From Candidatus Hydrogenedentota bacterium (GTDB lineage Bacteria > Hydrogenedentota > Hydrogenedentia > Hydrogenedentales > SLHB01): a stretch of DNA of 64,000 nt. Made by a program: the position numbers and the translations under genes. Below are positions 5,283-10,426 of the stretch, piece after piece; positions within the stretch are counted from its first letter, which is position 1; each line of letters begins with the position of its first letter. Location: assembly GCA_045863335.1 (NCBI GenBank), contig BTVY01000001.1:104671-168670 (forward strand), given 5' to 3'. The notes under the pieces are model-generated. The model made no database searches and was not told the DNA's origin. It saw only the letters and a program-made list of their open reading frames with translations.

Positions 5283-5313
5283 CGCATGCACCTCGTCCGG
5301 TTGAACCTACAGT

Positions 5314-5345
5314 CAGAATATAACACATCGTTATATTCTGCGCAA
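5314..5345 (-). promoter_or_regulatory. Sigma70-like promoter overlapped by a palindromic operator
   Basis: Perfect inverted repeat CAGAATATAAC-N5-GTTATATTCTG (5314-5340). Minus strand reads TTGCGC-17 nt-TATATT with a TGn extension. Confidence 0.65.
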
Positions 5346-5347
5346 GG

Positions 5348-5422
5348 TCAATCCGACAAATACAGCTTGTGCAACACGATCAACGCAATGATGCCAACAG
5401 CGATAAGCAGGTACAGGATCAT
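5348..5422 (-). CDS. 24-aa single-TM microprotein MILYLLIAVGIIALIVLHKLYLSD
   Basis: Translated by hand. G-rich RBS, -10 TACTAT conserved in both copies (5473-5478; 3341-3346), and mostly conservative substitutions versus the paralog at 3214-3289. Confidence 0.7.
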   Translation of the reverse strand: MILYLLIAVGIIALIVLHKLYLSD

Positions 5423-5885
5423 GGCGATGCCCCCCGTTCCGATCTCTGGCCCCGATGCGGTTTACTGGGTCTATAGTACCCAAAGGAATGTACGAATTGC
5501 GATTTGGGCCTTGCGAAGATGGATACCCGCCTTCCCTGCTACGCAGCAAGCTCCGCCGAGACAAGCGCGGGCATGACGGTATGGGGTGGCGTCGCGTGGA
5601 TGGATGCACGACGGTTACCGGCCCGGCGGAAGATCACCGGTGGGGGTCACGCCTTCGAGCCTGATGCCACACGGTTGACTGAAACGCGCGGACCTATTCC
5701 GATCGCGTCGAGTCTTACGCCACGAAACGGGCGGGACGCCCGTTCTCCTTGCAATCCCGTTTCTTGATTCGGTGTGAATCGGTACAACACACCCCGGCGT
5801 AGCTTCGGGCACAGCCACGCCTGCGGCGTGGTGGACGCTCAAATCTTCGTCGTCATCCGCGGCCATCCGCGCAATCTGCGGACAC
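5348..5885. repeat. Copy 2 of the ~500 bp dispersed direct repeat
   Basis: Collinear with 3214-3703, plus a 32-nt insertion (5534-5565) inside the GGATACCCGCCTTCGCGGGCATGA REP hairpin. Confidence 0.9.
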
Positions 5886-5923
5886 AATCTTTATTGGGTA
5901 ACGGCCCCTCATCCCCGAGTCGC

Positions 5924-6572
5924 CGTAATCGATTGAATTTCTGCCCCTACAACCTCCAGCCCCCAGTCTCCAGTCTGTTTACCCCCGTGTCCCCGTAATT
6001 GATTGAACTTCCTGCGCCTGGCAGCCCGTGGCGAAAGTCCGCATTCGGAAGATTGTAGCGTCCCGCCTTCCACGGCGGGCGTCTTTTTCCGCTCAAATCT
6101 GCGATTCTGAGTCTCGCCCGGCATGGAAACCGGGCGCTACAGGACTGAGTCTCGCCCGGCATGGAAACCGGCGCTACAGGGCTTTTCCGACGGACTGCCA
6201 CAACCTCCAGCCTCATCCCGACTGCAACACCCCGCTCTCTCTATAGTGAGGAGTACTCCACCTATGACACACGACTCCCAGCACCGGCCCCGCAACTCCA
6301 ACGCCGATCGCCTCGAACTCCACGCTCCTCCGGATGCGACTGAGACCCCCTTGAATCGTCAAAAAAGCAACCGCCTCCCCCAGCCTCCCCGGACCATTGG
6401 CACATGCCTCGACCTGCGCGCAACCCATTACCCAGTCGCCACTTGGCAGAAGGGTTCACCAATTCCGCATTCCGCAATCCGCAATTGGATCCCCCCTTGA
6501 ATCGTCAAAAAATAAACCGGGTGCACCCTCTTCTCCAGCCTCCAGCCTCCAGTCTCCAGTCTCCGGTCTCCC
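5924..6572. repeat. Mosaic of short repeats
   Basis: CTCCAG(C/T) heptamer runs (about 5948-5976 and 6533-6571). Tandem GTAG-type REP CTGAGTCTCGCCCGGCATGGAAACCG(G)GCGCTACAGG (6107-6143, 6145-6180). Exact 21-mer CCCCCTTGAATCGTCAAAAAA (6346-6366, 6492-6512). TCCGCA(A/T) heptamers (6461-6487). Confidence 0.8.
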
Positions 6573-6640
6573 GCCTGTGACGAACGTCACCTTCGCTGGT
6601 ATTTGCATGCGGTTGTCCCAACACAAAGGAGTTTCAGGTT

Positions 6641-6760
6641 ATGAAGCACGTGAAAAAGGTATCGAAGCTGCATCCCTCGAAGCCGGCCGTGGCGGCCGTC
6701 GTCATCGGCGAAAAGGCATCCAAAGAGGAAAAGAAAGAACCCGCCACAATGGCGTCGTAG
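6641..6760 (+). CDS. MKHV-family microprotein 1 (39 aa): MKHVKKVSKLHPSKPAVAAVVIGEKASKEEKKEPATMAS
   Basis: AAGGAG RBS at 6626-6631. Homologous N-terminus in four other sORFs. Followed by a strong hairpin. Confidence 0.85.
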   Translation: MKHVKKVSKLHPSKPAVAAVVIGEKASKEEKKEPATMAS

Positions 6761-6791
6761 CTGGAACAGCAAGAGATCGATTTAGTGAAAC

Positions 6792-6823
6792 GGGGTGTGG
6801 CGGCGGGCACGCCGCCACACCCC
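6792..6823 (+). terminator. Perfect 14-bp GC-rich hairpin after microprotein 1
   Basis: GGGGTGTGGCGGCG-GGCA-CGCCGCCACACCCC. The U-tract is weak, so it may be a stabilising or processing stem instead. Confidence 0.55.
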
Positions 6824-6901
6824 CTGCATTTCACGCCGTGATGAATCGCCCCGTCGTCTGTACTCGAAATAACGGTGACAACGACACAGGAGGCTCAAGT
6901 C

Positions 6902-7015
6902 ATGAAACACATCCATCAAATGTCCAAGCTGCATCCGCCGAAAACGGCCGTGGCCCTGCCGGTGAAGGCAAAGCCCTTGAAGGAGCCCAAAGAAGGAACG
7001 GGCGCCATGGATTAG
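6902..7015 (+). CDS. MKHV-family microprotein 2 (37 aa): MKHIHQMSKLHPPKTAVALPVKAKPLKEPKEGTGAMD
   Basis: AGGAGG RBS 8 nt upstream. Shares SKLHP.K.AVA with microprotein 1. Confidence 0.85.
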   Translation: MKHIHQMSKLHPPKTAVALPVKAKPLKEPKEGTGAMD

Positions 7016-7167
7016 GCGGGCTATCTCACGTAAGTAAAACGCACTGGGGAGCGAGCGCACACGCGACCGCTCCCCAATGGAATAAACGCGCATCATTGGA
7101 CGGGACCGCCACGAAACGCAGACCCGTCCCACTTCTCAATTCTTAATTCATAATTCGTAATTCTTAA

Positions 7168-8037
7168 TTAAAACGAAACCGTTCCGCCGACGAAGGCGCC
7201 GTTCATGATCACCTGGTACTCGTCGTCATCGTCTTCGTATTCGAGGTTCCAGTAGCGGTAGCCGCCTTCGAGTTCCAGCCACTGGGTCAACCGGAATTTT
7301 AACGCTGCTTCGGCGTTGAAGAAGTTCCCGTAGTCGCCGGCGTACATGCCGTAGGCCTGGGCCTCGAGACTGAGCCGGTCTATCGGCCGGAACTCCATGC
7401 CAAGTCCCACGATGGGCAAGCCCGCCGTGACGTCCTCTTCGTCCTGGTAATAGAGGTCCACGTTCAGGAAGTCCAACTCGTCCGGCAACAGGCGGCCCAG
7501 ATCGCGGCGCACGTCGCGCGCCCAATCGGGAAAGACCTTGCGCCACGCGCCGCCCACGGGATAGGCCTCGTATTCGCCGGACACGTCGAACCCCTGCACG
7601 CCGAGAATGGTTTCGATATTGAATTTGGCATCCGGCTGGAAGAACGACCGGCGCCAATCCAGCCGCAGGAAATGAAGGTCGGAATCCACCTCGAGATGGG
7701 CAAATAGCGGAATGAACGAATCGTCCACCACCACGCCCTCGGCGATGATCTCGTCGCCGTCGAAGCTCATCTGGTTGTACGCAAGCTCGAAGGCATGCTT
7801 GGGCAGGAACTGCCAACGCAGGATCGCTTCCGGACTGTAATCGTCGTCGATGGCGAGTTGATCGTCGAGGTCCAGCTTATCCCCGCTGAGGTCTTTCACC
7901 AGCGAGGTTTCCGCGCTGAAATCCACGCGCCAGGCGCGGAGCGTCAGCGAGAGGCGGTCAAACTCGACCGTTTCTTCCTGGGCAACTACGGCGCCGCAGA
8001 ACGCGACCGCCACGAGGATTGGGAGTAAGTACTTCAT
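7168..8037 (-). CDS. Outer-membrane beta-barrel protein
   Basis: Sec signal MKYLLPILVAVAFCGAVVA, alternating amphipathic strands (LELEGGYRYWNLEY) and a C-terminal Phe. Confidence 0.8.
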   Translation of the reverse strand: MKYLLPILVAVAFCGAVVAQEETVEFDRLSLTLRAWRVDFSAETSLVKDLSGDKLDLDDQLAIDDDYSPEAILRWQFLPKHAFELAYNQMSFDGDEIIAEGVVVDDSFIPLFAHLEVDSDLHFLRLDWRRSFFQPDAKFNIETILGVQGFDVSGEYEAYPVGGAWRKVFPDWARDVRRDLGRLLPDELDFLNVDLYYQDEEDVTAGLPIVGLGMEFRPIDRLSLEAQAYGMYAGDYGNFFNAEAALKFRLTQWLELEGGYRYWNLEYEDDDDEYQVIMNGAFVGGTVSF

Positions 8038-8218
8038 GGTCAATATCCTTTCCACAACGCTGTTGTGCGTCCTTCCCCGAGTCGAAGTGACTCCTCTCAC
8101 AACGTCGTCTGTACCTATTATCGGACGCAAAGTCCTGTCTGTAAAGGGGTAATCCCCGAAATTTCAAAATAGATTCTGTAAATTCTAAGAAAGGTTCCGG
8201 GGGAGATCTCGATTTGAC

Positions 8219-8248
8219 TTGACATGCAACCATATGGTTGCATATAAT
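8219..8248 (+). promoter_or_regulatory. Sigma70 promoter with a perfect 20-bp operator palindrome (ArsR autoregulation)
   Basis: TTGACA (8219-8224), 18 nt, TATAAT (8243-8248). ATGCAACCATATGGTTGCAT at 8224-8243. Confidence 0.9.
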
Positions 8249-8254
8249 CGGGTC

Positions 8255-8575
8255 GTGGACATGGACCTGGTGTTTAAGGCGCTCGCGGATTCGACACGAC
8301 GGCTGTTGCTGGATCGGCTGCACGAACACAACGGCCAGACCTTATCCGAGCTGTGCGAGCGGATGGACATGTCGCGGCAGGCGGTGACGAAGCACCTCGG
8401 CATCTTGGAGGCGGCAAACCTCATTGCCGTCGTCTGGCGCGGCCGCGAAAAGCTCCACTACTTGAACCCGGTTCCCATCCACGAAATCGCCTCGCGGTGG
8501 ATCGGGAAGTACGAACGCTATCGTCTGGAAGCGCTGCACGATCTGAAACAGGGGCTGCAACAAAACAACGAGTGA
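8255..8575 (+). CDS. ArsR/SmtB-family repressor (SRPBCC-associated type)
   Basis: VFKALADSTRRLLLDRL...MSRQAVTKHLGILEAANL...GREKLHYLNPVP. Start is GTG 8255 or ATG 8261. Confidence 0.93.
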   Translation: MDMDLVFKALADSTRRLLLDRLHEHNGQTLSELCERMDMSRQAVTKHLGILEAANLIAVVWRGREKLHYLNPVPIHEIASRWIGKYERYRLEALHDLKQGLQQNNE

Positions 8576-8585
8576 GGGCTGCTGC

Positions 8586-9065
8586 ATGAGCGAACAGAAA
8601 TTTGTCTACGTCACCTACATCAACACGACGCCGGAAAAGGTGTGGGAGGCCTTGACCAACGGCGATTTCACGTATCAGTATTGGGCGGGGCGCCGCATCG
8701 AGTCGGACTGGAAACCCGGCTCGCGCGTCCAGCACCTCATGGAGGATGGCGGCATCGATTGGGACGGCGAAGTGTTGGAGTGCGATCCGCCCCGGCGGCT
8801 CGCCTACACCTTCGACGTCCGGCTGAACGCCGGGAAGAAGAACGTCGACAGTGAATGCGGGTGCCACGGTTCCGGGGAGCCGCCGTCACGTGTGACCTTT
8901 GAGATCGAATCCTTCCGGGACAAGGTCAAGCTGATCGTCACCCACGACCAGTTCCCGCCGGACAGCAAGGTCCTTTCCGGTGTCTCCAAGGGTTGGCCCG
9001 CGATTCTTTGCAGCCTGAAGAGCCTGCTGGAAACGGGCGACGCCCTGTTTCCGGATTGGCGTTGA
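8586..9065 (+). CDS. SRPBCC/AHSA1-like ligand-binding protein
   Basis: YVTYINTTPEKVWEALT, VLECDPPRRLAYTF and GWPAILCSLKSLLETG. Confidence 0.9.
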   Translation: MSEQKFVYVTYINTTPEKVWEALTNGDFTYQYWAGRRIESDWKPGSRVQHLMEDGGIDWDGEVLECDPPRRLAYTFDVRLNAGKKNVDSECGCHGSGEPPSRVTFEIESFRDKVKLIVTHDQFPPDSKVLSGVSKGWPAILCSLKSLLETGDALFPDWR

Positions 9066-9101
9066 TGGCGTACCGCACGAGCGCAATAAAGGAGATCGAC
9101 A

Positions 9102-9563
9102 ATGGCAACGCTCTACCATCAAGTGTGGATAAATGCGCCCCGTTCCGCCGTCTACGGCGCGCTGGCGACCGCGGAAGGGCTTGGCAAGTGGTGGGCCCCA
9201 CACACCTCGACGAAAACAAGGGAAGGACTCGTGCTGGCGCATAGCCCGGGCGAGGCCCACGGCGACGTGCAAATGAAAGTGGTCGACGCAACGCCGCCGA
9301 AACGGGTGGAATGGGAAATCATCAGCTCGCACCCGAAGGAAAGCCCGGCGTCCGCGTGGACCGGCACGCGCATCATCTTCGAGATCGAGGAACGACCGAG
9401 CCCCGGCCACTGGATGGGCATGACGAACGAAGGCCAACCCATGGCGGTCGTGAACTTCCAGCACGCGGGGTGGGACGAGCGCAGCGCGTTCTTGCCCTTC
9501 TGCAACTACGCGTGGGGTGTCACGCTGGACATGCTGCGGAGCTGGTGTGAGTCAAACCCATAG
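9102..9563 (+). CDS. SRPBCC domain protein
   Basis: INAPRSAVYGALATAEGLGKWW, WTGTRIIFEI and CNYAWGVTLDMLRSWCE. AAGGAG RBS. Confidence 0.88.
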   Translation: MATLYHQVWINAPRSAVYGALATAEGLGKWWAPHTSTKTREGLVLAHSPGEAHGDVQMKVVDATPPKRVEWEIISSHPKESPASAWTGTRIIFEIEERPSPGHWMGMTNEGQPMAVVNFQHAGWDERSAFLPFCNYAWGVTLDMLRSWCESNP

Positions 9564-9851
9564 CGATCCGGACTTCCGAGGCGAAACCCCTGGGCAGCGG
9601 GGTGCGTCTTACTGTTATCCAGACGCATCACGACGGACGGCCGCGGGGAATTGCACATCGGTTGGCTGAATACCCGGCGCCGAATCAAGACGCAGGTCGA
9701 GAACCGTAAGCCTATACCCTAAGCCAAGATGCGCGATTGACGCACGCATTGGACAAAAGCGATCCGCTTGGCGAAGCTGTTATGAATCGGGTTTCAGACG
9801 GTATAACCTCAAACAGTGGGACCTGGTTACAATCGAGGGAGAATAACCAAG

Positions 9852-9947
9852 ATGAAGCACGTAAAAGCTCTGTCCAAGACGTCGTATCCCGTGAAAGCGT
9901 TTGAGGTGGCGAAGCCGGTGAAGCCCGTCAAGGTGAAGGGGGGGTAA
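9852..9947 (+). CDS. MKHV-family microprotein 3 (31 aa): MKHVKALSKTSYPVKAFEVAKPVKPVKVKGG
   Basis: GAGGGAG RBS and the conserved N-terminus. Confidence 0.85.
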   Translation: MKHVKALSKTSYPVKAFEVAKPVKPVKVKGG

Positions 9948-10001
9948 TCGCGGCCCAATGTTCCGGAACCGTTCTACGAGTCAACCAACAAGGATCTCAA
10001 C

Positions 10002-10097
10002 ATGAAACACGTGAAGACCATGTCGAAGACGCAGCGTCCCGCTTTGGCCGAAGAGCCGATGAAGGCGAAACCGGTCAAGCTGAAGCGGAAACCCTAA
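10002..10097 (+). CDS. MKHV-family microprotein 4 (31 aa): MKHVKTMSKTQRPALAEEPMKAKPVKLKRKP
   Basis: AAGGA RBS and the conserved N-terminus. Confidence 0.85.
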   Translation: MKHVKTMSKTQRPALAEEPMKAKPVKLKRKP

Positions 10098-10255
10098 GGG
10101 ACATTGGCGGAAGAACGCATATTGGGTTGCAGGCGGTTGACGAGTGTTCCTCCGCTTGCCATGCAATATCGCGTCGAACCTCTTGTGGCGTCTACCGTAA
10201 TTCCGATTGGTCGTTATAGCCGAGTGAGGTCCAACGAACACCGAGGAGGGCAACC

Positions 10256-10354
10256 ATGAAGCACGTCAAGACGCTGTCGAAACAAATCACTCCGGCCCCG
10301 GCCGCGAAGAAACCGGTCAAACCGAAGCCGGTCAAACCGAAGTCGGAAAGCTAA
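10256..10354 (+). CDS. MKHV-family microprotein 5 (32 aa): MKHVKTLSKQITPAPAAKKPVKPKPVKPKSES
   Basis: GAGGAGG RBS, the conserved N-terminus, and a terminator downstream. Confidence 0.85.
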   Translation: MKHVKTLSKQITPAPAAKKPVKPKPVKPKSES

Positions 10355-10384
10355 GCGAATCGTTCATCCGAGTATTCTTTGTTC

Positions 10385-10416
10385 AGGCACGGTGCAATGC
10401 GCCGTGCCTTTTCTTG
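10385..10416 (+). terminator. Rho-independent terminator after microprotein 5
   Basis: AGGCACGGTGCA-A-TGCGCCGTGCCT followed by TTTCTT. Confidence 0.8.
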
Positions 10417-10426
10417 TTGATGGCGG

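Follow-up and report, generated by a model that had tools for sequence, protein, structure and literature searches.

Five leader-bearing microprotein genes of a Candidatus Hydrogenedentota bacterium as probable satellite precursors of a peptide system served in trans

Five small genes with a common leader

The subject of this study is a group of five short open reading frames (sORFs) located on the + strand of a 64,000-nucleotide stretch of DNA, called here the window (GenBank contig BTVY01000001.1, positions 104,671 to 168,670), in the genome of a Candidatus Hydrogenedentota bacterium (assembly GCA_045863335.1; 6.75 Mb, 60% GC, 105 contigs; labelled G000). Their products begin with the residues MKH of a common leader, and all five were matched by a hidden Markov model (HMM) of this leader. 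The first cluster consists of sORF 1 (6641..6760, 39 aa, tail AVVIGEKASKEEKKEPATMAS) and sORF 2 (6902..7015, 37 aa, with a K/P-rich tail), and the second of sORF 3 (9852..9947, 31 aa, tail FEVAKPVKPVKVKGG), sORF 4 (10002..10097, 31 aa, tail EEPMKAKPVKLKRKP) and sORF 5 (10256..10354, 32 aa, tail AKKPVKPKPVKPKSES). In the case of sORFs 2 and 3, the listing of open reading frames opens at an upstream GTG codon, and it is the ATG following the Shine-Dalgarno sequence that gives the MKH start. AGGAG-like sites were found 6-12 nt 5' of each of the five starts, in agreement with the strong ribosome-binding site ascribed to every copy in the initial annotation, a note made from the letters of the stretch alone, which had also given the positions, strand and peptide sequences correctly. 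Folding with ViennaRNA recovered the hairpins that this note had placed on the same strand after copies 1, 2 and 5: a GC-rich one with a 14-bp stem and without a T-run after sORF 1 (6792..6823), one with a 9-bp stem after sORF 2 (7045..7076), and one with an 11-bp stem plus T-run (10385-10409; 10385..10419 for the whole terminator-like element), found also by a terminator scan, which closes the sORF 3-4-5 cluster in the manner of an intrinsic terminator. No strong structure was predicted by folding between sORFs 3-5, and these three may constitute one transcript.

Comparison of the five window peptides bore out the invariance of M1, K2, H3, S8 and K9. The peptides are strongly basic, with isoelectric points (pI) of 9.9-10.8 and 7-10 Lys/Arg residues each, and contain no Cys. 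A K-P-V/L-K motif is common to four of the five tails and to relatives of these peptides in the genomes G002, G004 and G005. Within the sequence encoding the sORF 5 tail, a 15-nt tandem repeat is present in 2.5 copies (10309-10346) and encodes KPVKP units; such an arrangement suggests that K/P-rich tails may grow by slippage.

When the five genes were aligned at the DNA level together with 50 nt upstream of each, the 5' flanks were unrelated and the conserved codons varied at their third positions, as had been observed earlier for both the synonymous codons and the flanking DNA. Orthologous regions were recovered by a DNA search of five sister genomes of the genus, and the sORFs were found intact in them. 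The orthologue of sORF 1 in G005 differs by 6 synonymous and 3 non-synonymous changes, that of sORF 2 in the same genome is present with indels in its tail, and those of sORF 3 in G003 and G005 carry 12-13 synonymous and 6-8 non-synonymous differences. When four independent orthologue pairs were counted by the Nei-Gojobori method, 24 synonymous versus 11 non-synonymous differences were obtained in the pooled set (binomial p = 1.3e-8 against the expected 23% of synonymous sites), with proportions of differing synonymous (pS) and non-synonymous (pN) sites of 0.26 and 0.036, respectively, and a ratio of 0.14. Reading frames this short, missed by gene callers and with only 11 proteins in the databases matching their profile, might have been taken for chance frames or for non-coding elements conserved at the RNA or DNA level. 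This explanation, to which we assign next to no probability, is already close to refuted by the frame-specific pattern of substitutions, by the unrelated upstream DNA accompanying codons that are conserved with third-position variation, by the Shine-Dalgarno sequence at every copy, and by the dozens of paralogues and orthologues found across the order. The five sORFs are real coding genes under purifying selection.

The non-synonymous to synonymous rate ratio (dN/dS) for the leader, a check that the initial annotation had named, was about 0.17 in orthologue pairs of the window sORFs, that is well below 1, and for the tail it was about 0.10. Since the value for the tail does not exceed that for the leader, the tails are constrained at least as much as the leaders. 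The earlier description of a hypervariable core therefore could not be maintained: between species the window tails are conserved, four of them sharing the motif mentioned above, and they form a conserved K/P-rich subfamily for which 'hypervariable' is the wrong term.

Contigs assembled from RNA libraries of four studies, and derived partly from relatives, cover the region of sORFs 3-5, sORF 4 included. One metatranscriptome contig extending over 9980-10372 has a depth of 81.6, compared with about 6 in contigs that span adjacent genes, a measure which cannot rank genes; as it is 94% identical to the window, this contig comes from a relative. Uncovered parts of the stretch in the sets X16, X19 and X20 carry no meaning. 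The cover by RNA contigs is thus a weak hint of sORF 3-5 expression.

One leader joined to many tails

The genome was scanned for further copies by applying the motif and then the leader HMM to 269,119 nested sORFs. The profile search and copy count proposed in the initial annotation yielded about 25 family members, distributed over 13 contigs, and an independent six-frame profile search of the genome returned 23 members at E <= 0.1. The leader HMM E-values for the family, 1e-6 to 1e-3 over the scanned set, together with the substitution pattern of the orthologues, place the family beyond chance. The tag common to its members is MKH[VI]Kx[LIVM][ST]Kxx(x)PxxA, 16 residues long (16-18 aa), in which M1, H3 and A15 are invariant among the 25 members and P12 is at least 90% conserved. 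The tails of these members do not align with one another, being hydrophobic or amphipathic, Trp-rich, Cys-bearing (2-4 Cys) or K/P-rich; members outside the window contain 0-4 Cys. Because the same leader is joined to unrelated tails, the N-terminus is best regarded as a tag rather than as a portion of a single mature fold.

Direct reading of the 25 leaders, made without a dedicated predictor, revealed no Sec h-region, Tat RR or lipobox Cys, the leaders being polar and basic, and no GG at the leader end. We thus agree with the earlier statement that Sec, Tat and double-glycine features are missing. The sequences likewise belong to no named family, as had been presumed: scans of the five window peptides and four other members against Pfam and NCBIfam gave no family at E <= 10, and the HMM of the SCIFF (six Cys in forty-five) precursors gave no match either. 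PDB sequence searches, in which the family profile and a single member served as queries, returned no matches at E <= 10, and the best score in an ESM Atlas search with sORF 1 was 0.76, under the useful range. In a collection of 5.8 billion proteins, only 11 matched the family profile, a number explained by the fact that such genes are rarely called. These are orthologues with conserved cores, so that the conservation of cores noted for the window tails extends to other members of the family.

Most members sit among unrelated genes. An all-against-all BLAST comparison of 172 neighbour proteins showed that the recurrent ones are Gfo/Idh/MocA-like oxidoreductases, DUF1559-like prepilin proteins, sulfatases and similar abundant families (the first two labels were given by eye from sequence). 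These families were considered as partners of the peptides and judged to be background. The search for recurring neighbours that the initial annotation had proposed was productive at one place, the locus on contig C15 described below, where a protease, an exporter and a protein with a recognition element were found; around most members it returned background families.

Other members were noted in settings of their own. On contig C37 (locus L010, 184-6150) a member starting at 6019 lies directly after genes for an extracytoplasmic function (ECF) sigma factor, an anti-sigma-like protein carrying a beta-lactamase domain, a B12-binding radical-SAM protein (535.8 bits versus the BchE cut-off of 481) and a DUF1963 protein. 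This gene set could represent a second tailoring route for a Cys-pair subfamily; a paralogue of the C37 peptide is found at the start of contig C14. On contig C22 (locus L007, 14542-17754) three tandem members with Trp-rich tails follow an ECF sigma gene and a zf-HC2/TPR anti-sigma-like gene, and similar trios occur in other genera (loci L024, L027 and L028).

A CteB-like protein at the C15 locus

On contig C15, two family members are followed on one strand by three GNAT genes, an Rce1-like CPBP intramembrane protease, an ABC ATPase of the DrrA subfamily (223 bits), a permease and a protein of 641 aa, designated P0012 (locus L005, 4810-6732). The permease is polytopic, was judged by eye to be of ABC-2 type, and matched no Pfam or NCBIfam family. 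The only PDB sequence match of P0012 was CteB (5WGG_A, E 8.6e-19, about 430 residues), the thioether maturase of the SCIFF precursor CteA. The alignment includes the N-terminal recognition element (RRE) characteristic of enzymes acting on peptides that are synthesized ribosomally and modified post-translationally (RiPPs), because it starts at residue 7 of both proteins. CteB was also the top Foldseek match (5why_B and 5wgg_A, E about 1e-16, about 480 columns) of the AlphaFold model of P0012, which has a mean predicted local distance difference test (pLDDT) score of 72.9 and a predicted template modelling (pTM) score of 0.60. The C-terminal 170 residues retrieved the GNATs SpeG, RimJ and RimL.

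The SPASM model TIGR04085 scores 36.4-40.7 bits on P0012 against a cut-off of 27, and all 19 orthologues keep the SPASM cysteines C394, C397, C403 and C426 unchanged. With only these four, at most one auxiliary cluster is likely. The motif CxxxCxxC occurs in none of the 19 orthologues, no Cys being present where the CteB motif aligns, and Pfam Radical_SAM (PF04055) does not match P0012. In spite of the SPASM match, the protein thus lacks the cluster site of radical-SAM maturases, and no radical chemistry is expected of it. P0012 is thus a CteB-like protein in which the RRE was kept, the radical-SAM-like barrel lacks its cluster motif, a remnant of the SPASM domain persists and a C-terminal GNAT domain was gained. 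Among its residues 94 are invariant, about 29 of them within residues 8-77, a concentration that would be expected if one surface serves many peptides.

The kinship with CteB raises the question of whether the peptides are ranthipeptide precursors of the SCIFF type, or belong to another class for which a genuine radical-SAM enzyme, encoded at a different place, would be responsible. The nearest relatives of P0012 are indeed maturases of the SCIFF, Nif11 and QhpD types, and three other SPASM-bearing genes exist in the genome. None of the latter, however, lies on a contig region holding a family member. The SCIFF precursor model (TIGR03973) matches no member, its best six-frame match in the genome reaching 13 bits (E 0.8, contig C26, not a member) versus a 50-bit cut-off, and the six-Cys core is incompatible with the Cys contents given above, particularly with the Cys-free window tails. 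The missing CxxxCxxC of P0012 argues in the same direction, and we regard this explanation as highly improbable. The start of the leader may resemble the SCIFF N-terminus, a likeness which the PDB searches did not confirm and to which no weight was given.

Each of the 31 genomes of the order that were searched contains a homologue of P0012, in most cases as a single match. In databases these homologues are labelled 'SPASM domain-containing protein', 'GNAT family N-acetyltransferase' or 'uncharacterized'. Upstream of P0012, at a distance of 4.0-5.7 kb, 2-5 MKH sORFs were found at 18 of the 19 loci whose upstream sequence extends over 7 kb or more; three other loci, with flanks shorter than 4.6 kb, were uninformative in this respect. 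The order peptides, GNAT(s), CPBP protease, ABC ATPase, permease, P0012 is kept in three of four distant relatives, as judged by crude calling of open reading frames, and in the fourth (L062) the stretch was called on the opposite strand. The last peptide of the cluster nearly always possesses a core of the 'ADAF...W..F.Y.KKNE' type. The leader profile, which was trained on this genome and is thus biased to the genus, matched 28 of the 31 relatives at E <= 0.1, with 8-25 matches per genome within the genus. We conclude that the peptide system is ancestral to the order and that the scattered satellites, including the K/P-rich copies of the window, represent an expansion, strongest in this genus.

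Association of leader and P0012 was modelled in one complex prediction, in which an alignment of 19 P0012 orthologues was combined with an alignment of 15 window-type peptides, sORF 4 being the first row. The interface score ipSAE was 0.77 in three runs, versus 0.00 for the best of three controls, and at least 67% of contacts were shared between the runs. Confident contacts are predicted between peptide residues 1-13 and residues 24-30, 60-76, 328-331 and 437-451 of P0012, of which 24-30 form the invariant CFCFECD strand and 60-76 an acidic helix with the invariant E60, E63 and E67. An acidic RRE surface facing K2, H3 and an otherwise basic leader would be at least chemically sensible. According to PMC8326336, the CteA leader (about 18 aa) lies on the RRE of CteB as a beta-strand, which is placed between strand beta-3 and helix alpha-3. 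The modelled pose of the MKH leader would correspond to this canonical mode, because equivalent elements are used. The prediction speaks for likeness and compatibility and is not proof of binding.

An invariant C24-x-C26-x-x-C29 was noticed in the strand of the RRE with which the leader is paired in the model, adjoining the leader's invariant His3. Metal- or redox-dependent leader recognition through these cysteines is conceivable.

These observations bear on the proposal that the peptides are uncleaved cytoplasmic cationic microproteins, similar to histone H1 and binding nucleic acids or ribosomes, with the shared N-terminus a motif of the mature protein. Such a function would suit the high pI and Lys/Arg content of the window peptides, the conservation of their tails between species and the failure to see, on direct reading, any hydrophobic region resembling a signal peptide. 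It is difficult to reconcile with the same N-terminus standing before unrelated hydrophobic, Trp-rich and Cys-containing tails, with its order-wide physical linkage to a protein bearing an RRE, to a membrane protease and to an exporter, and with a model that puts exactly residues 1-13 on the RRE; hence, we consider it improbable. Two alternatives had been put forward in the initial annotation, and they fared differently: a histone-H1-like family is unlikely in view of the leader being joined elsewhere to tails of other kinds, and a multi-copy leader-plus-core system with machinery acting in trans gained a candidate in the C15 operon, as well as support from conservation across the order and from the docking model.

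A candidate pathway and its relation to known peptide systems

Taken together, the five sORFs are probably satellite precursors of an undescribed, Hydrogenedentota-specific, leader-dependent RiPP-like system, by which they would be served in trans. The first 13 or so residues (MKHVKxxSKxxxP) would act as the recognition tag, docking as a beta-strand on the RRE of P0012, as the model and the homology to CteB suggest. Judging from its domains, P0012 most likely serves as a scaffold that binds the peptide and offers its tail to the fused GNAT domain and to the two or three stand-alone GNATs beside it. By the same reasoning, these domains might N-acylate the tail, either at Lys side chains, which would suit the K/P-rich tails of the window, or at the new N-terminus. 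The CPBP/Rce1-like protease of the C15 operon would cut the tag off after the invariant Ala of PxxA, and the DrrA-type ABC-2 exporter would release the product. The window copies would then constitute a K/P-rich, strongly cationic subfamily expanded in the genus, one enzyme serving them in trans as in the case of prochlorosins. Our best guess is that their mature products are cationic extracellular peptides, possibly N-acylated.

Several points weigh against this interpretation. Every step that follows translation, with modification, cleavage and export, is inferred. Since no maturation gene is located near the window sORFs, the shared leader is their sole link to the C15 operon, and the window tails have neither Cys nor any motif tied to known chemistry. 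The docking result may reflect the likeness of P0012 and the leader to the solved CteB-CteA complex; the pLDDT of the peptide, 48-49, leaves its own fold uncertain, and as self-made alignments were used, the calibration of the ipSAE mark (attained in 58 of 80 complexes of solved structure and in 2 of 110 mismatched pairs) holds roughly only. By sequence, the C-terminal GNAT domain of P0012 from this genome is weak (E 0.0025), though it is supported by the fold and by matches of PF13420 to some orthologues. The occurrence of P0012 in every genome searched, mostly as a single match, is more reminiscent of a housekeeping gene than of the variable clusters typical of natural products. Of 121 genomes sampled from the whole phylum, only 47 gave a match to the leader profile at E <= 0.001, and at one locus (L063) no upstream sORF was seen. 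Finally, the depth of contigs is no measure of whether the sORFs themselves are transcribed.

A different view of the C15 operon is that the leader is solely an export or targeting tag, for which P0012 would be a docking chaperone of the ABC-2 exporter, and that the tails leave the cell unmodified, as amphipathic or cationic peptides similar to bacteriocins or phenol-soluble modulins (PSMs), the GNATs having another task, for example self-protection. The ABC-2-type exporter and the CPBP protease are always in the cluster, the cores of the peptides residing there look like amphipathic or hydrophobic helices, and P0012 has no radical-SAM motif; all of this speaks for such a view. On the other hand, the operon of this genome contains four GNAT domains, and distant relatives keep one or two stand-alone GNATs in addition to the fused one, which speaks for a role of these domains in the pathway. 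We therefore see rather little likelihood in export of unmodified tails and prefer the leader-dependent tailoring system.

In its boldest form, the latter reading would amount to a phylum-wide, single-copy and nearly housekeeping pathway, in which a dead radical-SAM RRE-GNAT scaffold acylates, trims and exports about 25 tagged microproteins, those of the window becoming polyamine-like cationic (lipo)peptides, and which would be a new RiPP class with combinatorial logic in the style of prochlorosins. This extended version is offered tentatively, and we would not bet on it.

The logic of a leader, an RRE, tailoring enzymes, a protease, an exporter and satellites in trans is known from RiPP systems. 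A conserved leader with diverse cores, as in RRE-dependent RiPP families, was found in the 25 members, and linkage to an RRE protein at C15 and at the 18 of 19 other loci mentioned above, the window genes being unlinked. The closest system is that of the SCIFF ranthipeptides (CteA with CteB, PDB 5WGG/5WHY), with which the Hydrogenedentota peptides share a short leader and, in P0012, a homologue of CteB including the RRE. According to PMC8326336, SCIFF is also widespread within a whole lineage and not sporadic. The present case differs in lacking CxxxCxxC, Cys-rich cores and a match to the SCIFF HMM, in having a fused GNAT, GNATs that stand alone, a protease of the CPBP family and an exporter of the ABC-2 type, and in that about 25 scattered precursors replace a single one.

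Prochlorosins and other precursors with Nif11 or nitrile hydratase-related leader peptide (NHLP) leaders are examples of one enzyme acting on many scattered precursors. As in those families, a processing enzyme present in a single copy is accompanied by many genes that have one conserved leader and diverse cores and lie dispersed elsewhere in the genome; the leader here, however, is unrelated and only 16-18 aa long, and there is no LanM, double-glycine site or peptidase-containing ATP-binding transporter (PCAT). Assignment to the Nif11/NHLP leader family was rejected because of this leader length and the lack of a Pfam or NCBIfam match at E <= 10. Double-glycine/PCAT bacteriocins were rejected in view of the leader ends without GG and of the position of the three Peptidase_C39 domains of the genome, which reside in open frames of 1618-2243 aa, not of ordinary PCAT size, on contigs C4, C61 and C88, at a distance from the family members.

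Tailoring by GNATs is known among RiPPs from microviridin (MdnD), goadsporin (GodH) and the selidamide acyltransferases. These systems likewise combine GNATs and an ABC exporter in a cluster for leader-dependent peptides, whereas in Hydrogenedentota a GNAT is fused to the RRE/dead-radical-SAM scaffold, up to four GNAT domains occur, and the cluster has no ATP-grasp, YcaO or other primary modifying enzyme. In staphylococci, the CPBP-family protease MroQ processes AgrD and the Pmt ABC transporter exports PSMs. The proximity of an Rce1-like CPBP protease and an ABC-2-type exporter to genes for small amphipathic peptides recalls these systems; the peptides, however, are unrelated in sequence, the staphylococcal systems have no RRE protein, and the role of the CPBP protease here is inferred.

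What appears to be new is the leader family, the fusion of a dead radical-SAM domain with RRE and GNAT, and its phylum-wide single-copy conservation, a combination unmatched in Pfam, NCBIfam and PDB. No publication linking Hydrogenedentota to such a system was found in a search that excluded supplements and most subscription journals, and a literature search by the leader motif returned unrelated papers only. The main text of a 2025 survey of RREs (PMC12710340) contains none of the terms GNAT, acetyltransferase, SPASM or Hydrogenedent, and its supplements could list a cluster of the P0012 type.

Standard gene calling misses the MKH sORFs, as is seen from the 11 database proteins that match the family profile, versus dozens of copies per genome. 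If the proposed system is real, an uncultured phylum common in sludge and bioreactors would have its own conserved leader-guided peptide system. It would provide a new pair of recognition tag and RRE, and an instance of a radical-SAM maturase that gave up its chemistry, kept peptide binding and gained an acyltransferase. The hydrophobic, Cys-bearing and polycationic cores would be a natural substrate set for GNAT-type tailoring. The function of the universally conserved 'SPASM domain-containing protein' of the phylum also becomes directly testable in E. coli.

As regards the surroundings of the five sORFs, the neighbouring genes in the window encode a YfaZ-like outer-membrane protein, an ArsR/MarR regulator, two AHSA1/SRPBCC proteins and a sulfatase. 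All are unrelated to peptide maturation, and no maturation gene was found in the window or adjoining the five sORFs, in accordance with the initial annotation, which had reported no adjacent modifying enzyme, peptidase or exporter. The segment of about 1.3 kb upstream of sORF 1 (~5300-6640) contains short overlapping open reading frames only, with a 38-nt direct repeat at 6107-6180, and may be a non-coding or degraded element. Heptanucleotide tandem arrays, (CTCCAGY)n, (TCCGCAA)n and (TTCTTAA)n, are found at 5954-5976, 6464-6485, 6533-6576 and 7133-7169. The arrays at 6533-6576 and 7133-7169 have many short matches (88-100%) on other contigs of the sister genomes G003 and G005, and thus represent a dispersed intergenic repeat type of the genus.

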